Source of the DNA: Escherichia coli
GTDB taxonomy: Bacteria; Pseudomonadota; Gammaproteobacteria; Enterobacterales; Enterobacteriaceae
Length of the DNA stretch: 64,000 bases
Reading direction: 5' to 3' (one strand)
Assembly (NCBI RefSeq): GCF_009931435.1
Contig: NZ_CP043415.1
In this document: piece after piece, positions 4,030 through 36,600 of the stretch
Position numbering within the stretch: the stretch's first letter is position 1
Layout of the letters: each line of letters begins with the position of its first letter
Notes under the pieces: generated by a model
Told to the model about the DNA's origin: nothing
Database searches by the model: none
What the model saw: only the letters and a program-made list of their open reading frames with translations
Program-made: the position numbers and the translations under genes

Positions 4030-5399
4030 AGCGTGCTCCCTCCGAAGTGATAGTTGTTCTGGTAACGACTGAGCATGCGGGCGGAAAGCTGCTGACGCAT
4101 GTAGCTCATCTGACGATCGACAACCAGCAGCGCATCCTGCTGTACCTGCACCTGTGACTGAAACGCCGCAATCTGCCGGGTGGCATCATTCATGTTGTCG
4201 TTAATATGCCCGATAACCGCTTCGTCATAATTTCCCGTGGCCACCATCGCCCGGGCCTGCTGTATCAGCTCCTGAATGTACTGCAGCAGGATGTCGTAAC
4301 CGATATAGTCCGTCAGCTGGTAAATCATACTGTTGGAAACACCGAGCATCTGCGGGTCAACCAGGTATTTGAAGACGGGGATGGTGGTACTGGAAATAAA
4401 GCCTTTTTCCTTGTCATCCAGAGGCGTGTCACTGACAGCCTTGTTCTGAATGCTGGCCAGAAGTTTAGTAATCTGAGACTTCAGTGCATTATCCCGGCTG
4501 ATGGTCACCGGTGTGTCTGCCACCACTTTCAGGCATTTATCAGAATCGTTGCAGTGATAAATTTTTGCTGTGCCGCCTTCCATCATGGCCCGGATAATTG
4601 AGCGGTCAGTGGTTCTGGCTGACAGCGGTGTGATTTCGCCGTTGGGACCAAACACCAGTGAGCCGGTCAGCGTCATCACAAACTCTTTCAGCTCTTTGTT
4701 GCCGTCAAACATTCTGTTTTTGGAAAGCGCATTCCACATGATGTTAATGTTTTTGGTCACCCGCTCCTTATCCTTGTCGCTGGCTTTATCCCTGACGCTG
4801 TCAGATTTACCGCCAACGGTACATCCCTGCCGGGAAGCCGCCCAGTCAGCAAAAATATTGCTCTCACCGGCAATGTCCTGACAGACTTTTTGCTGGGACA
4901 CCTGCGTCCGGGGGAAAAGCCCGCCGATAATCCCCTGCGCCGCCTGGCAGGAACTGAGGTTCATGCTGTTAATGTCGCTTGCCATTTTCTGCAGGAAGTC
5001 TTTTGCGGTTTTGATTTCCGGCACCGTTGTCTGCAGGGCAAGGTCAAAAAAGTAACCGGCAGCATTACTCATAATCTGCTTAACAAAACGCTGCAGCTGC
5101 TCACCATTAATAAAACTGAACGAACCGAGATAAGCGTCGATGCCGCCACATCCGGCATTGATATCCGGCAGCGTCATGGAAATCAGCTGAACATTTTTGA
5201 CCTGAGTACGGGCATACAGGGAGCCGCCGTAAGCATAGCCGGCAGCCTGCCCCTGCCAGACGCCCGGCTGTGTGGTATTGGAGGCGAAGCCCAGCTTGTT
5301 AAAGAACTGATTCATGTCGCTGTTCACATCCGCTGACGCTGCAGGCGTCACCGTCAGTAAGGCGGCACAAAGAATAAAAAGAGGCTTAATGCGAAGCAT
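4026..5399 (-). CDS. traH: TraH pilus assembly protein
   Basis: 457-aa ORF with signal peptide (MLRIKPLFILCAALLTVTPAASA); length and position match F TraH. Confidence 0.9.
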   Translation of the reverse strand: MLRIKPLFILCAALLTVTPAASADVNSDMNQFFNKLGFASNTTQPGVWQGQAAGYAYGGSLYARTQVKNVQLISMTLPDINAGCGGIDAYLGSFSFINGEQLQRFVKQIMSNAAGYFFDLALQTTVPEIKTAKDFLQKMASDINSMNLSSCQAAQGIIGGLFPRTQVSQQKVCQDIAGESNIFADWAASRQGCTVGGKSDSVRDKASDKDKERVTKNINIMWNALSKNRMFDGNKELKEFVMTLTGSLVFGPNGEITPLSARTTDRSIIRAMMEGGTAKIYHCNDSDKCLKVVADTPVTISRDNALKSQITKLLASIQNKAVSDTPLDDKEKGFISSTTIPVFKYLVDPQMLGVSNSMIYQLTDYIGYDILLQYIQELIQQARAMVATGNYDEAVIGHINDNMNDATRQIAAFQSQVQVQQDALLVVDRQMSYMRQQLSARMLSRYQNNYHFGGSTL

Positions 5400-6932: not shown

Positions 6933-7247
6933 ATGGAAAAGCGATCTTTTAAAGAAAAACTGGAAATAATCAGAAACATAATAAGAGAGTCGTTACTGGG
7001 AAATGCGGCAATTATTGCGCTGATATATGCAGCATCACATTCATTACCGGTCAATGCCTTCCCTGACTATCTTGTAATAAGTTTATTAAGTATCGCAGCA
7101 GTCATCGTTGTATTATGGTTATTTTCAATTATCTATATTTATTTTTGTGAGCTATTCAGAAGCCACTGGATTGCGGTATGGTTTATCATATGGTCTTCAG
7201 TAATCAACCTCATTATTTTGTATGGTTTTTATGACCATTTTATATGA
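6933..7247 (+). CDS. artA: ArtA, anti-sense-oriented small membrane protein of the tra region
   Basis: 104-aa hydrophobic ORF on the opposite strand between traQ and trbA, exactly as artA in F. Confidence 0.65.
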   Translation: MEKRSFKEKLEIIRNIIRESLLGNAAIIALIYAASHSLPVNAFPDYLVISLLSIAAVIVVLWLFSIIYIYFCELFRSHWIAVWFIIWSSVINLIILYGFYDHFI

Positions 7248-7248
7248 C

Positions 7249-7596
7249 TTAGCCTGTCATAAGCCCCCTTATAAAAAACCACATCACTCCGGACCATACC
7301 GATGACAACACAATACAGATAAATATTCTTCTGAACCTGTCGAAGCTCGTAACGTCCGGTAATGCGGCCGCAACTATTGAAACAACCAGTGCTGCGCCCT
7401 GACTCATAATTGCACCACACAGAAACCAGAGACTGGCGGTAAGCACATATAAACACGCGATATTAATAACAAGGAAAACCAGTGAGCTCAGGAGAAACAT
7501 TTTCCTGTCATTACGCTCAGAAAAGAAATAACCGGCAATAATGACAAACATTAACAGAACAACACCTGTAAACATTTTCAAATAATCTTCACTCAT
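7249..7596 (-). CDS. trbA: TrbA membrane protein
   Basis: 115 aa, hydrophobic, located between traF and artA as in F. Confidence 0.7.
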   Translation of the reverse strand: MSEDYLKMFTGVVLLMFVIIAGYFFSERNDRKMFLLSSLVFLVINIACLYVLTASLWFLCGAIMSQGAALVVSIVAAALPDVTSFDRFRRIFICIVLSSVWSGVMWFFIRGLMTG

Positions 7597-20926: not shown

Positions 20927-21292
20927 TCAGAGGCCAACGACGGCCATACCCACAGCAATAAATACAGAGATGATGGCAAAACCGGCCAGGAACTTGACGT
21001 TTTTGGTCATCATGTACATGACCGCACCGACCAGAACTTCAGCCAGAACAACCCATTTAACAACACTGGAGTCCTTACCGAAGGTCGCCTTAACCGTGGT
21101 GTTACCACTTGCCATCAGGTCCTGACCACTGCTGCCGGCGGCCATCGCCAGCTGCGGGAAGAACATCATCAGAACAGCAGCCGGGATCACAGCGCGAGCC
21201 AGGCGAAGCATATTCAGACGAGTGAATTTAGAAAAAAACGACTTCTTTTTGACGGGCGCAGAAACACCCTGAACACTTAAAACGGCGTCCAT
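20927..21292 (-). CDS. traA: TraA propilin (F-type pilin precursor)
   Basis: 121 aa; mature region [70 protein letters not shown] matches F pilin; N-terminus [11 protein letters not shown] is an allelic variant. Confidence 0.95.
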
Positions 21293-21334
21293 ATGATTCC
21301 TCTGTTTAATATTGATAGTGAAAAATAAAACTCT

Positions 21335-21550
21335 TTATATATCGTCTATGCTTTCAGCTTCCTCCTTTACTAAAGATGCATTATAAAAGTCTGGAAAACG
21401 ATTGAGATGATCTTTTAGTCTAATGAACACCTCATTAGTTTTTGTTCTTCCGCTACGATCTCTAGCTGCTAAAAGTTTCTGATTGGTTGTCTCATCCAGT
21501 ATTAATAAGACTTTGTTACCCGGTGCGGCTCTGGTTCTCCCTCTGCTCAC
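21335..21550 (-). CDS. traY: TraY ribbon-helix-helix oriT-binding protein (short, R100-type); GTG start
   Basis: 71-aa ORF directly upstream of traA, starting at GTG preceded by GGAGGAAAC. Confidence 0.8.
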   Translation of the reverse strand: MSRGRTRAAPGNKVLLILDETTNQKLLAARDRSGRTKTNEVFIRLKDHLNRFPDFYNASLVKEEAESIDDI

Positions 21551-21685
21551 GTTTCCTCCGCATAATTACTTGAGATAATAAAATATAATCATATAAATCA
21601 TCTTTAATGAAAACAAAAATAGAGTAAATTATATTAACAAAAACGGGAACCAATGGTTCCCGCAAAGTAACAATAAGTTAACAGC

Positions 21686-22333
21686 CTATCTTCCCAATAT
21701 TTCTTTTACTTTAGCATATAAAGGAAGTATCTTTTCCGTTCTAATCATTTCATCCAACCAGAGATCTCTAGAACTAAATCCATGTCGTTTAAATAATTTC
21801 ATGGTTTTCTTCTTTGATTTAGACACAGTGATGTTCATCTTTGCTGATGAATAATGATGGCTAAACCCTATCAGATATGGCTCAATGCCTACATATTCAT
21901 CAGATAGTACAATTAATTCATTGGTGTATTTAGACACAACAAACGATGACAGATTATCATTTGCTACCCAAATAAATCTCCAGATAAAGAAATAGCCGCA
22001 TGGTGTGATAACACTTTCTATGATCACACTCCATAACATATTATTAAGTAATATGTCATTATTACAATTTACACCATAAACTGAAGAGCATGATTCAATC
22101 TCTGCTCTGGATAACTGTAATTTACATTCCAACGTTAAACTATCAAACCATTCATCACATGAATTAAATGACGATCTGATAAGTTTTTCAAAGCGGTTAT
22201 TTTCCTGAATAAAAGAACCATCCTCGAAGCGGACACATACTGGATATTTTAAAAACGAAATAGCCTCTCCAAGACTATGAGGGAAATGCAATTGACTGAT
22301 GAGTGCTCTTTCTCTACGATCCATCGCACACAT
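21686..22333 (-). CDS. traJ: TraJ transfer activator
   Basis: ORF between traM and traY; start placed at [11 protein letters not shown], preceded by GAGGAGG. ORF track extends to 22411 via an upstream TTG. Confidence 0.8.
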
Positions 22334-22412
22334 AGGAACCTCCTCTAAGGATTCTATGGACAGTCGATGCAGGGAGTGGCTGCTCCCTGCATCGGCGATT
22401 TTCAGTTTCAAT
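22330..22412 (+). ncRNA. finP: FinP antisense RNA, complementary to the traJ leader/RBS
   Basis: Opposite the traJ start: perfect hairpin CGATGCAGGGAG-TGGCTG-CTCCCTGCATCG (22365-22394) followed by a T-rich tract, a stem-loop plus terminator architecture. Ends approximate. Confidence 0.55.
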
Positions 22413-22523
22413 TTTTAACGTGGCATTAACCACATAATCAATATACTAATTATTCTGATTATTGTCATCAGTTTGAACCATAAAAAACCATGATATTTGA
22501 ACAAAGTCAAAATTTATTTCACT

Positions 22524-22907
22524 TTATTCATCATCATTTTTTGGAAAGAACCTTTCCATCTCAACCGACACCTTCTCTCTGATATCTTCAACCATATTGG
22601 CATATTCAAACTTCGGTTTTCCGGAAACATGAGGGCTAAGAGACTCAATACCTAAAATCTTTGCCACCGTTGACTGCGTTTTTACAACACACTCAAGAAG
22701 AAGTTTATTAAACTCTGCCTGATTAAACGCTGATTCTTTTCGTTCCATCTGCGCTTCATAAACTCGCAATCCTAACTCAAGCAACATAGAGGCAATACTT
22801 GAATAACTAACATCTTTCTCTTTTGCTCCCTCTGCTCGCCTTTGCACAGCAATAGCATTTATTTTTTCAGACACATGGTCATTAACATAAACCTGAATTT
22901 TGGCCAT
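22524..22907 (-). CDS. traM: TraM relaxosome accessory protein
   Basis: 127 aa, MAKIQVYVNDHVSEKINAIAVQRRAEGAKEKDVSYSSIASMLLELGLRVYEAQ..., recognisable as F-family TraM. Confidence 0.92.
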   Translation of the reverse strand: MAKIQVYVNDHVSEKINAIAVQRRAEGAKEKDVSYSSIASMLLELGLRVYEAQMERKESAFNQAEFNKLLLECVVKTQSTVAKILGIESLSPHVSGKPKFEYANMVEDIREKVSVEMERFFPKNDDE

Positions 22908-22929: not shown

Positions 22930-23260
22930 AAACAAACAATATATTTTCGTGCTCTCTATTCTGCACCTTATGACGAATCACCATTAGATTCATCATACTA
23001 AAATCACGATTCACTATACGAATCAGCAATCATCAAATGACGAATCTAATATAGATTCACGCGCCAAGTAAATAGATGTTTTCAAAAAAAATAGTCATTA
23101 CTGAATCATTGACAATTCGTGATAGATTCACTATCGAATCTATCACGAATCTCTGCAATATAATTCAAAATTATATAATATAAATATAGTTCATTAATTA
23201 CATGATTTAAAACACAAATCAGCAAAAACTTGTTTTTGCGTGGGGTGTGGTGCTTTTGGT
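22930..23260. other. oriT: oriT: origin of transfer with TraM/TraY/IHF binding region and F-type nic site (~23248/23249)
   Basis: Contains TTTGCGTGGGGTGT|GGTGCTTTTGGTGGTGAGAACCACCAACC, the F oriT nick-region sequence; AT-rich repeats toward traM. Confidence 0.85.
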
Positions 23261-23339
23261 GGTGAGAACCACCAACCTGTTGAGCCTTTTTGTGGAGTGG
23301 GTTAAATTATTTACGGATAAAGTCACCAGAGGTGGAAAA

Positions 23340-23849
23340 ATGAAAAAGTGGATGTTAGCCATCTGCCTGATGTTTATAAATGAGATCTGCCAGGCCACTG
23401 ATTGCTTTGATCTTGCAGGCCGGGATTACAAAATAGATCCTGATTTACTGAGAGCAATATCATGGAAAGAATCCCGTTACCGGGTTAATGCCATCGGTAT
23501 TAATCCGGTAACGGGATATGGCAGCGGACTGATGCAGGTAGATTCCCAGCATTTTAACGAACTGGCCCGCTACGGAATTAAGCCAGAACATCTGACAACA
23601 GATCCCTGCATGAACATTTATACCGGTGCTTATTATCTGGCAATAGCATTTAAAAAATGGGGCGTCTCCTGGGAGGCCGTTGGTGCATACAATGCCGGAT
23701 TCAGGAAGACCGAACGCCAGAACCAGAGACGTCTTGCCTACGCATCAGATGTTTACCGGATTTATACCGGGATAAAAAGCAGTAAAGGTATCCGGATTCC
23801 GGCCACGAAGAAATCACTTCCGGAAATTAACAGCGTGCAGAACAATTAA
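23340..23849 (+). CDS. Gene X / orf169-type lytic transglycosylase
   Basis: Start set at [19 protein letters not shown] (signal peptide); 169 aa; first gene on the leading side of oriT as in F/R1. Confidence 0.88.
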
Positions 23850-24094
23850 TCTTACAGACATTGTCAGATACCTGTTATGCCGCAAAAGCGGCATGGAAGG
23901 CCACACACAAAAATATCATATGAGTGACAATACTGACTGGCCGAAGCCCCGCGAAGCGGGAACCCATCTTATATATACCCGGTAACTGCGCAGCCTCCTG
24001 CCAGACCATTTTTCGCGGGCACAATATTTACAGACAACCGGAAAGCCAGTTGATGAAATTGAGGTATATCAGACGACACAGCGATGCCGAAGAA

Positions 24095-24147
24095 TGATAA
24101 TATAAGTAAAGCCCCGAAAAATTTTCGGGGCTTTACTTATATTATCA
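24095..24147. terminator. 53-bp perfect palindrome, likely bidirectional rho-independent terminator
   Basis: TGATAATATAAGTAAAGCCCCGAAAA/ATTTTCGGGGCTTTACTTATATTATCA, a GC stem flanked by A/T runs on both strands, between convergent genes. Confidence 0.6.
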
Positions 24148-24357
24148 TGACTTCCACTTTCTGAACTGTTCGGCAATCACCCATAACGCCTTGTTGATTC
24201 TTATATCACCATCAATACCTGTAATGACTCTTGTCCTGGTATTTTTCCCGGAGGCACTTCGCCCAGATAATCCACCTTTTATCATATTCTCCTGAACCCG
24301 CTGCCAGGTTGTCCAGAGATCGTTCTGTTTATCCTCCCGACGACGGGGAGTAATTAT

Positions 24358-25047
24358 TTATTCAGGCGTCACTGGCGTTTTATTTTCATCTTCATACCTG
24401 ACCATCAGTGCAGCTCTGCCAAATAAATGTTGCTCGTCACTGTTAAGATGAATTTCTTTCATTGCCTCCATATTATCAGTGACCTTATCAAAGACACCGA
24501 GTACTTCATACGCACCCTCGATAACCTGCCCGACAATATCACCTTTATGTGGAACGCGGATTTCGCCAAAATTATTTCCGCACACCAGGCCATTTGTGCA
24601 GACAAAACGAAAAATTCCGGGGTTCATCTGATAACTGGATGAACCATCATGTGAATTAAGCAGGATAATTTCAGGAACTTCCTGCCCGTTAATATGCCCT
24701 TCCCTGCGAAGACGTAACATATGTTTACTGTATTCGCGACGTCCCAAATCACGAACCCGACTCTGACAGGCAAAGAATGGCTGGAAACCTTCATCACGTA
24801 ACTTATTGATGATATTGATTGTTGGAATATACGTATAACGTTCACTCCGGGACTCATGTTTATCACCGGAAAATACCGAAGGCACGAACTGCATTAATTC
24901 ATCATCCGTTAAAGGACGTTCACGGCGGATGGAATTATACCGACCAAAACGGGAAGCTAATCGCATAACAGCTACTCCTTTATGAAAGAATAAATTTAAT
25001 AAAAAATTTTTCCGCTTAATATCATCCCTCCCGATCTCCATTAACAA
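24358..25047 (-). CDS. Conserved leading-region protein of unknown function (possibly DUF932-like); start uncertain
   Basis: 229-aa ORF, first sizeable gene downstream of repeat copy A. Family name is from memory, unverified. Confidence 0.5.
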   Translation of the reverse strand: MLMEIGRDDIKRKNFLLNLFFHKGVAVMRLASRFGRYNSIRRERPLTDDELMQFVPSVFSGDKHESRSERYTYIPTINIINKLRDEGFQPFFACQSRVRDLGRREYSKHMLRLRREGHINGQEVPEIILLNSHDGSSSYQMNPGIFRFVCTNGLVCGNNFGEIRVPHKGDIVGQVIEGAYEVLGVFDKVTDNMEAMKEIHLNSDEQHLFGRAALMVRYEDENKTPVTPE

Positions 25048-25085
25048 GATTGCAACAATCAGGGGGGGGTATTCATCACATCCGG

Positions 25086-25373
25086 TCAGCAGATAGCCCG
25101 GATATCGAGGCCGGCACGCTTAATCTGACGCAGGAACTGTTTGAAGTGATCGGCTTCCGCAATGTTGATATGGCGGAACTGCGTATCCACACCCCGGCTG
25201 AGCGCGTAGCTATAGCTGAAGGCCATCTTTTCCGGGTGGCTTTTGCGATATTTTTTCAGCTCAGTCAGGCTGCTGAATTCCAGGACGTCCCACTCTTCCC
25301 CGGTGTTTTTTTTCTTCCCGGCAACAAGAAGCGTGTACGACGCGGTGTTAACGTGGATATTTCGGGTACTCAT
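25086..25373 (-). CDS. Hypothetical small leading-region protein
   Basis: 95-aa ORF immediately downstream of repeat copy A, co-oriented with the leading-region genes. Confidence 0.45.
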   Translation of the reverse strand: MSTRNIHVNTASYTLLVAGKKKNTGEEWDVLEFSSLTELKKYRKSHPEKMAFSYSYALSRGVDTQFRHINIAEADHFKQFLRQIKRAGLDIRAIC

Positions 25374-25384
25374 CCTGCTTTCTC

Positions 25385-26005
25385 CTCTCTCTGGTTTTCA
25401 GCCCCCATCATCTGTTGAGTTTCGGGAGCCGCGGTTTTGACGTTTTGCGGGGACCTGCCTTTTGTTCCCTCCGGTATTCACCATCACCTGTTTGAGAACC
25501 TTCGCCGCAAGGGGCATCACTGCCACGGCCGGAAACGACTGTCCGGGGGCAGACCGCAAAAGTTTTTGCCTGCTTTTGGGCAAAAACTTTTGCGGGATGT
25601 GCATTTCACCCCTGGACTGGCGGAGACGGTTGTGGCTGTCTTTGCCCCCGGCGACAGGGGCTTAAACAGGTGAATGGCACCGGACACAACAACGGGCAGG
25701 GACCCGCCGCAACGACGTGAAGCGCGGTTTGCGAAACGGAGTTGCCCCTTACATCCCGGCGGTCTTTTGCCGGGATGTAAGGAGCGCAGGCCACGGCGCG
25801 ACCGGAACGGTCGCTGCAAGCCCGGGGTTTTCACGCATCGGACCGTAGCGACAGCCCGAAACCGCGCCAGCGGGTTTGGCGGAGACTGACAGGTGCGCCA
25901 GCAGCTGCCTGTCGGAGTCGGGCCTGACGACCGGATGCCGCCAGGCAGCCGGGAGCCGAAGGTGCGCCCGGCAGACAGGACAACACTGCAGTAGTCAGAA
26001 TCAGA
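25385..26005 (-). repeat. Leading-region repeat copy A (Frpo/ssi-like structured element)
   Basis: Near-identical to 32760-33408 and related to 36112-36600; internal hairpins GCAAAAGTTTTTGCC..GGCAAAAACTTTTGC, CATCCCGGC..GCCGGGATG, GCGACCG..CGGTCGC. Confidence 0.7.
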
Positions 26006-26280
26006 GCAGGAAGAAAAAGAGAATAATCACAGGGAAGGTGATGTGATTTCTGACAGGCCATAACCAGAGAAGGCGGGGGAAAAGAACGGGCGCCGCAGGC
26101 GCACGTTCATCCCCGTTCCTGAAGGGAAACGACCTTCCTGAAGTCAGGTTGTTCATGCCCGTACAACATCAGCAAGGAGAAAGGGGCTACCGGCGAACCA
26201 GCAGCCCCTTTATAAAGGCGCTTCAGTAGTCAGACCAGCATCAGTCCTGAAAAGGCGGGCCTGCGCCCGCCTCCAGGTTG

Positions 26281-26718: not shown

Positions 26719-27438
26719 TCACGCTGCCTCCCGGAGTTTGTTCGGCACCATCCACCGCTCCATCTCACGAACAGCATGACCGACCACCCTTGCCGCCATA
26801 CCAGCCTCTGCGATGACCTGCCAGAATGGCATATCCTGCCACTGCCAGCGTTCCATTCCGGCCAGTGACGGAAAACGCTCGCCCCACTGCCAGAACAGGG
26901 TTTCCAGGTCATGCTCTGCCACCCGGTCACTCCAGCGTGCATGCCAGCTTCCGACTGTTTCCGGCGAATGGAATGCCAGTTCGATTTCAGCCTGAGCGAC
27001 CAGCGCCTGGTACGCACGGGCTTTCTGCTCTGCCTCCCTCGCCTGCTGGCGGCTGTACTTCTGCATGACCAGCGCGGATTTATGGCGACTGCGTTCCCTG
27101 ACACGAAACCGCACCGACGGGAACAAGCGCTCTGCTGCATCACCGGGAAGGGGAAGGAGGCAGACCTCGCCCTGTGTTTCAATCAGCACATCGATGGCAT
27201 ACAGCCACTGAAGACGGTTGCCGTGCAGTTCTTCTGCGGTCAGGGACGGCATGAAAAATCGCAGGTCAGACAGCGATATCCTGCGGCTTCCGTTCAGACA
27301 GCGGAAAAACGCCCCCGCATACGGATATTCAGCCAGCGTGTTACCCTGATGGCGGCGTTTTTCGGTCTCCGCCACCGCCCGCCATGCGGCCTGTTGCTCT
27401 GTGCTGAGAGGAACCAGTGCCTGTGAACGTGCGCTCAT
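26719..27438 (-). CDS. psiA: PsiA, plasmid SOS inhibition protein A
   Basis: 239 aa, [78 protein letters not shown]...; start overlaps the psiB stop. Confidence 0.93.
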
Positions 27439-27923: not shown

Positions 27924-31844
<3,921 letters not shown>

Positions 31845-31906
31845 TAGTACCTCCCAAAACGGTAATAATGATTGTCTGCCGGACGTGTCCCCGTCCGGCA
31901 CCTCTC

Positions 31907-32759: not shown

Positions 32760-33408
32760 TGATGTTTTCAGCCCCCATCATCTTTTGAGTTTCGGGAGCC
32801 GCGGTTTTGACGTTTTGCGGGGACCTGCCTTTTGTTCCCTCCGGTATTCACCATCACCTTTTTGAGAACCTTCGCCGCAAGGGGCATCACTGCCACGGAC
32901 GGAAACGACTGTCCGGGGGCAGACCGCAAAAGTTTTTGCCTGCTTTTGGGCAAAAACTTTTGCGGGATGTGCATTTCACCCCTGGACTGGCGGAGACGGT
33001 TGTGGCTGTCTTTGCCCCCGGCGACAGGGGCTTAAACAGGTGAATGGCACCGGACAGAACAACGGGCAGGGACCCGCCGCAACGACGTGAAGCGCGGTTT
33101 GCGAAACGGCGTTGCCCCTTACATCCCGGCGGCCTTTTGCCGGGATGCCAGGAGCGCAGGCCACGGCGCGACAGAGGCGGCGCGACCGGAACGGTCGCTG
33201 CAAGCCCGGGGTTTTCACGCATCGGACCGTAGCGACAGCCCGAAACCGCGCCAGCGGGTTCGGCGGAGACTGGCAGGTGCGCCAGCAGCTGCCTGTCGGA
33301 GTCGGGCCTGACGACCGGATGCCGCCAGGCAGCCGGGAGCCGAAGGTGCGCCCGGCAGACAGGACAACACTGCAGTAGTCAGAATCAGAGCAGCAGGAAA
33401 AAGAAGAA
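32760..33408 (-). repeat. Leading-region repeat copy B (Frpo/ssi-like), immediately upstream of ssb
   Basis: Near-identical to copy A over ~600 bp, with the same hairpins. Confidence 0.7.
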
Positions 33409-33626: not shown

Positions 33627-34190
33627 TCAGGCACGCAGACGAATAATCATCGTCGGGACATCGGTATAAGCAAACGTGCCGCGCGGCAGCTCCTCGCGGA
33701 CGTCAGAAAACGGTAACAGCTTCTCCTGCTGGCGTGGTCCGTTGAGACAGACGGCGACCAGCACGCCACCCGGACGCAACAGGGAAAAGGCCCGCAGGAT
33801 ATGCCGGATATCCTGCCCGTGGCTGAACGGCGGATTCATGATAACCCGGCTGTAATACTGCACTGGCTGCCATTCCATGAAGTCGCCACACTGAACCCTG
33901 ACACCGTTAAAATTTTCCCGCAGATACCGGACCAGCCCGCTGTTGATTTCCACCGCATCACACATGGCCCCCGGCGCGGTATCCCGAATCGCCCGCAGTA
34001 TGGCCCCGGTGCCGGCAGAGGGTTCCAGAATGTGATCACGGTTGCTGATCTCCGCCAGCATCACCAGGCGATCACAGACCGGGGCAGGAGTCACAAAAAG
34101 CTGAGATTCAGCCCGGATTTCAGCAACCGGCGCGGCGTTATCCAGCCTTGCGCGCATCAGCCGGATACGTTCTCTTAACTGACTGTGCAT
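33627..34190 (-). CDS. Putative SAM-dependent DNA adenine methyltransferase (small orphan MTase)
   Basis: 187 aa with motif I-like LEPSAGTGA and motif IV-like NPPF; no adjacent restriction gene. Confidence 0.65.
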   Translation of the reverse strand: MHSQLRERIRLMRARLDNAAPVAEIRAESQLFVTPAPVCDRLVMLAEISNRDHILEPSAGTGAILRAIRDTAPGAMCDAVEINSGLVRYLRENFNGVRVQCGDFMEWQPVQYYSRVIMNPPFSHGQDIRHILRAFSLLRPGGVLVAVCLNGPRQQEKLLPFSDVREELPRGTFAYTDVPTMIIRLRA

Positions 34191-34237
34191 ATCATTATCT
34201 CCGTCATCCCCCGGGGATTTTCCCGGGGGGATATACC

Positions 34238-35599
34238 TTATTTCTGTGGGATTTCCGTGATTTTCATGTCGGTGATATACACATTCACCAGGCGGAAATT
34301 ATTGTCCATTGTGCGGCGGTACCGGTATGCCCCGTGGTCTTCTGCTTCTGCCACACTGCGCACGGCCTTACAGTCCCGGGGCAGGGCGGCCCACTGTGCC
34401 TTTGTCATTTCCCGGAAACCTTCCCCCGGATAGTTGACTACCGGCGGACGCTTCGCGGCCTGACTGGCGACGGCAGCCTCTTCTGCCGATGGTGCTTTGT
34501 AGTCCGTGATGCGATCGGGCGTCACTTTCATCGTGCCGCTGTACCCGAGAAAACTGTAATTTGGCGTTGTGACTGAACTCACCGCCCCGTTGCTTTTGTT
34601 CACACGGATGATGGTCAGCCACTCGCCCCGGCTGAAAACCTGTCCGCCCGGCTCAAAATCCTGTGTCCGGGTAACCACGCCGCCGCTTTCGTCCAGCATG
34701 GCACGCTCATAGATCAGGCGGTTCTGATAGTGGTTAACCCAGCGTTGTTGATGCTGAATCTGCCGTTCATGACAGCGGATCGCAATTTCGCGGGCCTGCT
34801 CCGTGGTGATGATGTCATCATCCAGGGCCGACCATAACGATCGACTTCCTTCATACTGGCTTTTTTCTGCCGGGCGCGGATACGTATCCAGCGGGAAACA
34901 GGCGCTGATATGGTCATGACTGCTGATGAGTTTTGCCATATTCAGATCCAGCGATTCAGCCCGCCACATCGTCAGATATTTCTGCGACTGCGCGATGGTC
35001 TTTTCAGCCTTGCGCAAATCAGCTTCGATTTTTTTGATACGACGCCAGCGAACGTCCGGACGTTCTTTATACTTCGCGTGAAGCAGTGCCGACCGCGCCC
35101 GCTCTTCCCAGTATTCCGCACGTTCAAAGAGCATCACGGCTCGTTTCATGCCGTTTTCAATACGCTGCGCATCACGACGGGCGCGGCGTTCGCTGTGATG
35201 CCCCACAAGAATGGGCTGACCGGGCGGGATCATCGCGGCCAGTCTTTCCACTTCATCAAGTGCCTGTGCGGATTCACTGGCCCGCTTTCCGCTGTATCCG
35301 GTAAACCGCTCCGCCCGTGCTTCCTGACGTTCAGCGAGCGTGCTGTCTTCATCCTCAATCTCTCCGGCAAGTGAGAGGAGCACGTCTTCCCGGCCCGGTG
35401 TCCAGGCTGGCGCGACAAACAGCGCCTGTTTTGGTGCCCAGCGGAAACCGGCATCATGCACTTTTTTATACGTCTCCGGGTCAAGACGTGACACGGCATA
35501 CAGGCGCAGTTTGTTGTCATCCGGTGAGTAGGTCGCGCGGTACATCTGCACAGGGCTGGCGGCTTCCGGGGCGGTCATGGTGATTGCTGCTGATGTCAT
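34238..35599 (-). CDS. Conserved leading-region protein of unknown function, 453 aa
   Basis: Long charged ORF co-transcribed in orientation with the downstream MTase; no recognisable catalytic motif. Confidence 0.6.
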   Translation of the reverse strand: MTSAAITMTAPEAASPVQMYRATYSPDDNKLRLYAVSRLDPETYKKVHDAGFRWAPKQALFVAPAWTPGREDVLLSLAGEIEDEDSTLAERQEARAERFTGYSGKRASESAQALDEVERLAAMIPPGQPILVGHHSERRARRDAQRIENGMKRAVMLFERAEYWEERARSALLHAKYKERPDVRWRRIKKIEADLRKAEKTIAQSQKYLTMWRAESLDLNMAKLISSHDHISACFPLDTYPRPAEKSQYEGSRSLWSALDDDIITTEQAREIAIRCHERQIQHQQRWVNHYQNRLIYERAMLDESGGVVTRTQDFEPGGQVFSRGEWLTIIRVNKSNGAVSSVTTPNYSFLGYSGTMKVTPDRITDYKAPSAEEAAVASQAAKRPPVVNYPGEGFREMTKAQWAALPRDCKAVRSVAEAEDHGAYRYRRTMDNNFRLVNVYITDMKITEIPQK

Positions 35600-35650
35600 A
35601 AAATGTTCTCCTTCCGTCTGTTGCCGCCCCTCGCGGGGCGGCTCACCTCA

Positions 35651-35881
35651 TCAGTTAAAAGCGCGTTTCAGTTCGAGTGTGCGGAGCACCTGCCCGAAGG
35701 CCGTGTTTTTCATGGCGGGGATGTGTACACCACGCCCCCGGTGAAAACTCCGGGCAATGTGTCGCCCGAAGGCTTTCAGCACGGGGTCAATTTCCGGCGC
35801 GGGGATGTCTTCGCGTCTGAAACGGGGATGACGGCGGGGCTTTACAGCCGCTGCGGAAGGTGAAACAATACTTACTGTCAT
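35651..35881 (-). CDS. Hypothetical small protein
   Basis: 76-aa ORF, first ORF downstream of repeat copy C; weak support. Confidence 0.3.
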   Translation of the reverse strand: MTVSIVSPSAAAVKPRRHPRFRREDIPAPEIDPVLKAFGRHIARSFHRGRGVHIPAMKNTAFGQVLRTLELKRAFN

Positions 35882-36111
35882 AATTTAGCCTCTTATGACG
35901 TTAATTAATGAAACCGTAAAGACTGTTCGTGCAGTCTCTGCGGTGTGGATTAAGCAGGTCCCTGACCTGCTTTTTTCATATCTGCGTCTGACGTTCTCCG
36001 GTGTTTTCCTCCTTCTGTTCCTGCGTTCTCATTACCTGCCAGCCGGATGACTGACAGAACACATAAATGCGTATTGCCGGAGCCTGAAATAAATCCTGAT
36101 TTTTAAAGAAC

Positions 36112-36600
36112 ATCACCCGTTGAGTTTCGGGAGCCGCGGTTTTGACGTTTCGCGGGAACCTGCTGCTGTATTCCCTGTGGTATGAACTTCACCCGTTTGA
36201 GAACCTTCGCCGCAAGGGGCATCACTGCCACGGCCTGACGCACCTGTCCTGGGCAGAACGCAAAATTTTTTACCGGGTTTTGGGTAAAAAATTTTGTGGG
36301 CTGTTCATTTACCCTGGACAGTCAGTGCGGCAGGTTGTGGCTGTATGAGCCCCCGGCGACAGGGACTCATACGGGTGTGTGGCATCCGGCAGGCAATGAG
36401 CAGGGACCCGCCGCAATGACGGAGAGCGCGTGCGCGAAACGGCGTTGCGCCTCACATCCCGGCGGCCTTTTGCCGGGATGCCAGGAGCACAGGCCACGGC
36501 GCGACAAGGGTGGCGCGACCGTTCCGGTCGCTGCAAGCCCGGGGTTTTGCGGCGTCAGGGATGGAAGCCCGCCAGGGCGGAGACAGCTCCGCTGGCTCCG
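36112..36600 (-). repeat. Leading-region repeat copy C (diverged Frpo/ssi-like)
   Basis: Shares TTGAGTTTCGGGAGCCGCGGTTTTGACG, TTGAGAACCTTCGCCGCAAGGGGCATCACTGCCACGG and CCCGGCGGCCTTTTGCCGGGATGCCAGGAGC blocks with copies A and B. Confidence 0.65.

Follow-up and report, generated by a model that had tools for sequence, protein, structure and literature searches.

A locus probably equivalent to the Frpo1-ygeA-ygeB early operon of F, with a nonsense allele of ygeB, in an Escherichia coli IncF plasmid

The closest described counterpart of the locus reported here is the Frpo1-ygeA-ygeB operon of the F plasmid (NC_002483, 64032-65259), in which Frpo1 lies upstream of ygeA and ygeB, and ygfA is closest to oriT and has the opposite orientation (Couturier et al. 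2023, PMC9849209). In F, a YgeA-sfGFP fusion is made before double-strand conversion, reaches its maximum at ~5 min, and ceases after 25 to 35 min; donors show no detectable fusion protein, deletion of Frpo1 abolishes its production, and a YgfA-sfGFP fusion appears only after double-strand conversion (PMC9849209). In matings between MG1655 strains, transfer after 3 h was 92.6% for wild-type F, 25.2% for ΔFrpo1, 3.9% for ΔygeA, 32.7% for ΔFrpo1 ΔygeAB, and 14.5% for ΔFrpo1 ΔygeA, and a single ΔygeB mutant could not be built (PMC9849209). RNA-seq of donor-depleted matings found Frpo1-regulated genes enriched in F transconjugants (PMC12672017), and, according to a 2026 preprint, the leading region of F has four operons under single-strand promoters, and transfer and conversion proceed at ~790 nt/s (~0.8 kb/s; bioRxiv 10.64898/2026.01.09.698686). 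Our search of the literature on F found no transfer tests in restriction- or SOS-proficient recipients.

Three further systems resemble the locus in part. The class 1 promoters ssi1 to ssi3 of the IncI1 plasmids ColIb-P9 and pESBL also form transferred-strand hairpins, drive a burst of leading-gene expression, and shut off on double-strand conversion (PMC12672017), but their cargo consists of ssb, psiB, and ardA operons. Leading regions of IncFII plasmids (e.g., p2474-NDM1) share the layout hok, repeat, small gene, DUF932 gene, SLT gene, and oriT, but their small gene encodes a 98-aa protein without detectable similarity to YgeA. The DUF932/TIGR03299 family of “phage/plasmid-like” proteins, which matches ygeB strongly through PF06067 and phrog_12094 and has phage members by fold, differs from the copy described here in retaining a conserved C-terminal third. 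YfjQ and YafZ of E. coli K-12 are also members. Literature searches retrieved no functional study of DUF932, yfjQ, yafZ, orf273, or yubP.

We analyzed a 64,000-nt stretch of E. coli contig NZ_CP043415.1 (assembly GCF_009931435.1), hereafter the window. It is IncF plasmid DNA, and the region around ygeA and ygeB is the oriT-proximal end of that plasmid. We assign a probability of roughly 85% to the reading that an F-type plasmid is present here and that the locus corresponds to its early operon, Frpo1-ygeA-ygeB. In F, hok is followed by a noncoding gap, a 95-aa gene (64032), a 273-aa DUF932 gene (64438), an opposite-strand SLT gene (65556), oriT, and traM; the order hok/sok, repeat, ygeA, ygeB, SLT gene, oriT, traM is common to F and to this plasmid. 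The F order, the published arrangement (PMC9849209), and the coordinate-based naming scheme (yge for 64 kb, ygf for 65 kb) together identify the 95-aa gene as ygeA, the DUF932 gene as ygeB, and the SLT gene as ygfA. The likeness to F extends to the orientation relative to oriT, an identical YgeA protein, a promoter region with 98% identity, and a DUF932 gene that adjoins a convergent SLT gene. The locus differs from F in carrying the nonsense allele ygeB-Q203*, in a distal repeat portion that resembles another repeat copy of the window (copy B), and in a repeat (copy A) from which 14 nt of the F sequence are missing. At least 5000 plasmid records match a 2-kb query stretch, and most of them are conjugative plasmids of Escherichia, Klebsiella, and Salmonella. 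The older F names of ygeA, ygeB, and ygfA are orf95, orf273, and orf169, respectively. The features of the locus, in window coordinates, are as follows:

20927-22907, minus strand: traA, traY, traJ, and traM
22327-22435: FinP and the traJ 5' untranslated region
23240-23256, plus strand: oriT nick region, GTGGGGTGT and GGTGCTTT on the two sides of the nick, an exact match to the F nick sequence
23247-23849, plus strand: SLT lytic transglycosylase gene (F orf169, ygfA), identified by a PF01464 match and the F annotation
24094-24148, both strands: perfect palindrome (27+1+27 nt), a bidirectional intrinsic terminator that holds the ygeB TGA stop
24145-24966, minus strand: ygeB (F orf273), a DUF932 gene of 273 codons, a pseudogene here through Q203*
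24358-24360, minus strand: premature TAA (CAA in F), which is Q203*; predicted product, 202 aa
24967-25085, minus strand: ygeA-ygeB spacer of 119 nt, with AAGGAG 7 nt before the ygeB ATG
25086-25373, minus strand: ygeA (F orf95), encoding a basic protein of 95 aa (pI 9.7; 9.67), the first cistron after the single-strand promoter
25374-25790, plus strand: Frpo1-type (class 1) single-stranded DNA promoter, a long imperfect hairpin of the transferred strand
25492-25497 and 25515-25520, plus strand: candidate -35 (TTGAGA) and -10 (CATCAC) elements with a 17-nt spacer, in the 5' arm of the hairpin

Strand polarity follows from the nick. The sequence made up of GTGGGGTGT and GGTGCTTT, the nick sequence of F oriT, was searched for in the window and places the nick between 23248 and 23249 on the plus strand. 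The plus strand is therefore the transferred strand, entering the recipient 5' end first from 23249 toward higher coordinates, and genes on the minus strand are templated directly by the incoming strand. Upward from the nick lie the SLT gene (plus strand), ygeB and ygeA (minus strand), the large repeat, hok/sok, psiA, and psiB, and nothing but the SLT gene, which has the opposite orientation, stands between the nick and ygeB and ygeA. The SLT gene converges on ygeB and is not readable from the transferred strand. The GTG with which its longest frame opens overlaps the nick site (23247-23260), and its start varies among RefSeq records (591 to 648 nt).

The repeat next to ygeA, which the preliminary description had named copy A, is real; it comprises 25394-25693 and 25794-26020 and has further copies at 32764 and 36099. 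Its end at 25394 and the ygeA ATG at 25373 make ygeA the first cistron downstream of an Frpo1-type repeat. Over 25374-25745, copy A agrees with Frpo1, the F sequence that lies upstream of ygeA, at 363 of 370 aligned bases (98%); its identity with copy B is 96%, and that with copy C is 73%. Folded as single-stranded DNA, the plus strand from 25374 to 25860 forms one long imperfect hairpin of ~400 nt at 25374-25790, with a free energy of -143 kcal/mol versus -91 ± 5.4 kcal/mol for shuffled sequences (z = -9.6). The candidate TTGAGA-17-CATCAC element scores 8 of 12, has a bulge at its -10 hexamer, and lies within a block that does not vary among copies A, B, and C and F; no candidate emerged when the 3' arm was scanned for sigma-70 promoters. 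The assignment of these -35 and -10 elements is a reading of the hairpin fold, and with that -10, a putative transcription start would fall on the 3' arm at ~25620 to 25630, so that transcription would run around the loop and out toward ygeA.

The distal part of copy A (25746-26020) has a different affinity, with 97% identity to copy B of the window (33178-33404) and only ~70% to F Frpo1, and copy A lacks 14 nt that copies B and C and F all have. This mosaic looks like the product of recombination or gene conversion between repeat copies. Copy C (36099-36548) is a more diverged Frpo-like repeat that precedes genes for a 76-aa ORF, a 453-aa DUF3560 protein, and a 187-aa methyltransferase (33627-35881), and an Rfam match to the antisense RNA AS-pc01 lies near it at 35876-35975 on the plus strand.

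Both ORFs of the preliminary description occur in the ORF list at the coordinates given. The 95-aa ORF is a real gene, with a GGAG ribosome-binding site upstream and a small family of conserved relatives. Its translation is 100% identical to the F protein WP_000107542.1 (F 64032-64319), an accession common to F, to an E. coli plasmid that matches the query exactly, and to an E. albertii plasmid; the DNA differs silently, and the protein is the same in F, in this plasmid, and in E. albertii plasmids. The family is very small, with 143 close matches and with 85 representatives in a profile search of 1.84 billion proteins, and all of the named sources are Enterobacterales, many of them plasmids. 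YgeA had no match in Pfam, PHROG, NCBIfam, PADLOC, or the PDB, and none of ten family representatives scanned against Pfam gave a significant hit. YgeA is intact here and is probably the functionally important product of the operon.

The second gene had been described beforehand as a 229-aa ORF, which proved to be misdelimited at both ends; the real gene is the 273-codon ygeB. Alignment with homologues indicated that the TTG start at 25047 is an artifact of mechanical ORF calling; homologues begin with MRLASRF, corresponding to the ATG at 24964-24966, with AAGGAG 7 nt ahead of it. At the other end, the frame stays open beyond the TAA at 24358-24360 to a TGA at 24145-24147, and the RefSeq annotation of an identical sequence reads “DUF932 domain-containing protein, pseudo, internal stop.” A frameshift had been expected at first and was ruled out, since the alignment contains no indel and the lesion is a nonsense codon only. 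Five codons differ from F ygeB, Q203* (C>T) among them. The earlier guess of a DUF932-like product was sound (PF06067, 153.2 bits against a gathering cutoff of 23), and the match within the window ORF covers only profile positions 1 to 166 of 227, so that the whole domain does not lie in one intact frame. The F YgeB protein matches phrog_12094 with an E value of 4.6e-138, and the pI of YgeB is 8.94. DUF932 is a large family, with >6000 homologues of YgeB, and includes phage relatives found by PHROG match and by fold search.

In the homologue alignment, the C-terminal 71 residues deleted by Q203* are rich in invariant columns (R208, R209, D216, W218, Q225, E226, G231, G235, G240, T245, R246, and others). 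The allele is rare: among 5426 complete E. coli genomes, 6 have it, always on plasmids, in isolates from cattle, yak, and humans. The operon is carried by 2304 to 2910 of those 5426 genomes (about half), and ygeB is intact in most of ~2300. The same stop is present in pKBSW50i-A, a conjugative-type E. albertii plasmid from a pig isolate, whose ygeB has two additional changes, S111C and G235W, at DUF932 positions that are invariant elsewhere; the ygeA protein accession of this plasmid is unchanged, and its palindrome is identical. To judge by the sequences, this pattern fits a relaxation of selection confined to ygeB. The occurrence of Q203* in two species suggests that plasmids with a truncated ygeB still spread, and YgeB appears to be inactivated by Q203* and dispensable for spread in nature. 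This sits awkwardly beside the unsuccessful deletion of ygeB in F. The 202-aa fragment might be active, and possible explanations of the tension are such an active fragment, disturbance of the terminator or the SLT gene by the F deletion, or the plasmid background.

Two other leading-region genes of this plasmid attracted attention. An IS21-family element (istA with an rve domain, and istB) at 28795-30596 lies inside the ParB-like leading gene known as yfjB in F and recently as herB; the flanks at 27924-28742 and 30606-31901 hold the two pieces into which the gene is split, an N-terminal part of 431 aa and a C-terminal remnant of 272 aa. The insertion means that a second early leading-region gene, besides ygeB, is disrupted in this plasmid. 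The psiA ORF (26719-27438) spans positions 3 to 236 of the 237 in the PsiA Pfam model, and RefSeq flags psiA as frameshifted in the plasmid that matches the 2-kb query exactly; this flag may reflect an annotation-model issue and no real lesion.

Both genes had been said to end at a 53-bp perfect palindrome. The palindrome is real, perfect (its arms are 100% complementary), and terminator-like, but it measures 55 nt; and since it contains the stop codon of full-length ygeB, it is the full-length gene that ends there, whereas the ORF as delimited beforehand stops 210 nt earlier. As RNA, in the transcript of the minus strand, the palindrome has a folding energy of -46.7 kcal/mol (z = -12.1), with a stem core of GCCCCGAAAA/UUUUCGGGGC followed by a U-rich UUUACUU tail, and it was called by an intrinsic terminator scan. 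Being symmetric, it could also terminate the convergent SLT transcript. The same kind of scan predicted no terminator on the minus strand of the ygeA-ygeB spacer, so cotranscription of ygeA and ygeB is likely.

From these elements, a course of events can be proposed. Transfer would start at the 23248/23249 nick, and the plus strand would enter the recipient 5' end first; the promoter and both genes, all within 2.5 kb of the nick, would have entered after ~3 s at ~790 nt/s. Once single stranded in the recipient, 25374-25790 would fold into the long hairpin and mimic a duplex sigma-70 promoter, from which host RNA polymerase would read toward oriT through ygeA and ygeB with the incoming strand as its template. 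Transcription would end at the 55-nt palindrome that the operon shares with the convergent SLT gene. Synthesis of the complementary strand would then remove the hairpin and turn the operon off, giving a short burst of expression.

Early expression from a single-strand promoter, as proposed in the preliminary description, is supported by strand polarity, by copy A adjoining ygeA, by the 98% identity to Frpo1, and by the hairpin, and we infer that early, transient, Frpo1-dependent expression probably holds for this plasmid too. This reading is right but has already been published for identical or near-identical F sequences: the suggested assays, time-resolved expression after mating and deletion phenotypes, have mostly been performed in F with the predicted outcome (PMC9849209, PMC12672017). 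Since those tests were largely done in F, the window adds no new principle. The statement that the two genes have no assigned function holds biochemically but not otherwise, as both are named genes with published phenotypes in F.

Searches of YgeB against Pfam, PHROGs, NCBIfam, and PADLOC returned only families of “unknown function.” A PDB sequence search had aligned residues ~190 to 262 of YgeB with RmlC-type sugar epimerases (E values, 0.002 to 0.2); we rejected this candidate because the matched region is part of a beta-barrel, the YgeB model is helical there, and the E values are marginal. AlphaFold2 models of YgeA and YgeB were of moderate confidence (pLDDT, 74.7 and 73.6, respectively), and a search of a viral fold library recovered only other DUF932/TIGR03299 proteins. 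YgeA is a small, basic alpha/beta protein that probably aids establishment, also when donor and recipient are isogenic. We would guess, with low confidence, that its target in the first minutes after entry is a host protein or nucleic acid and, equally as a guess, that it is not a DNA mimic.

The setting of the two genes invites the idea that YgeA and YgeB are dedicated antidefense factors (antirestriction, anti-CRISPR, or similar), like ArdA, KlcA, and PsiB of other leading regions. They lie in the leading region, are read from the transferred strand, and stand behind an Frpo-type promoter, a setting in which antidefense genes are enriched (PMC11541004), and the phage relatives of DUF932 suggest a family common to elements that enter new hosts. 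However, neither protein resembles known antirestriction or antidefense families, including ArdA and ArdB-KlcA, in Pfam, PHROG, NCBIfam, PADLOC, or the PDB, and both are basic (pI 9.67 and 8.94), unlike acidic DNA mimics. In addition, the ΔygeA defect of F was seen between MG1655 strains, where there is no foreign restriction barrier (PMC9849209); that it arises between isogenic strains argues for a role of YgeA wider than the defeat of foreign restriction. On balance, we consider the antidefense explanation unlikely.

Comparison with other plasmids showed that ygeA and the DUF932 gene are not an obligate unit, to judge from gene content. In Salmonella plasmids, a ygeA homologue occupies the same place and is followed by HigB/HigA, with no DUF932 gene. 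In Cronobacter plasmids, a methyltransferase gene and several small genes separate ygeA from the DUF932 gene, and a 97-aa ORF directly before the latter matches YgeA over only the first ~12 residues. The 98-aa protein encoded before DUF932 in IncFII plasmids is similar neither to YgeA nor to the Cronobacter ORF. Three mutually unrelated genes of ~95 to 98 aa thus stand just upstream of DUF932 (window 25086-25373 and positions 4432-4728 and 7086-7379 of retrieved loci L012 and L005, respectively). The separability of the two genes suggests that the small first cistron is exchangeable. A broader proposal, that the slot between promoter and DUF932 is an exchangeable cassette whose small proteins are host-matched establishment or antidefense effectors, with DUF932 as a losable accessory partner, strikes us as quite unlikely. 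Loss of DUF932 under such a proposal, as in the Q203* lineage, conflicts with the failed ygeB deletion in F.

The F deletion data raise another possibility, that YgeA and YgeB are a toxin/antidote-like balancing pair and the operon is an entry-linked addiction or checkpoint module in which one product is harmful alone. Transfer of ΔygeA (3.9%) was worse than that of ΔFrpo1 ΔygeA (14.5%) or ΔFrpo1 ΔygeAB (32.7%), as if YgeB without YgeA were harmful, and ΔygeB alone was not obtainable (PMC9849209). The separability of ygeA and DUF932 weakens this reading, and it holds both ways, with a Salmonella ygeA homologue lacking DUF932 and an IncFII DUF932 gene accompanied by an unrelated 98-aa protein. 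Moreover, no toxin-antitoxin or defense model in Pfam, PHROG, NCBIfam, or PADLOC was matched, and ygeA with ygeB-Q203* persists in at least six E. coli genomes and in E. albertii. A balancing pair is therefore very unlikely in our estimation.

That coding content is of little account, with the hairpin maintained chiefly to serve complementary-strand synthesis as a primer or roadblock and with ygeA and ygeB as decaying passengers, would fit the pseudogene state of ygeB here, the first description of Frpo as a priming site, and the roadblock to replication formed by a different F single-strand promoter (bioRxiv 10.64898/2026.01.09.698686, PMC12672017), but it is highly improbable given a YgeA protein held identical in F, this plasmid, and E. 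albertii plasmids over silently differing DNA, a ΔygeA defect that exceeds the ΔFrpo1 defect in F (PMC9849209), and an intact ygeB in most of the ~2300 operon-carrying E. coli genomes.

The F-type early operon thus remains our preferred reading of the locus. Plasmids of the F type are major carriers of genes for resistance and virulence, and no other leading-region unit of F is known to affect transfer as strongly as this operon, although neither protein has an assigned biochemical activity. What is new here is minor, namely, the ygeB-Q203* plasmids of E. coli and E. albertii and the lineage-variable small gene upstream of DUF932. The window supplies a natural allele in which an intact ygeA accompanies a truncated ygeB, found in two species, in isolates from cattle, yak, pigs, and humans. 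The remaining interest lies in the biochemistry of YgeA and DUF932 and in this natural ygeB-null lineage, which offers a ready genetic background for asking what DUF932 does; the persistence of an intact ygeA beside a truncated ygeB suggests that YgeA is the key product.
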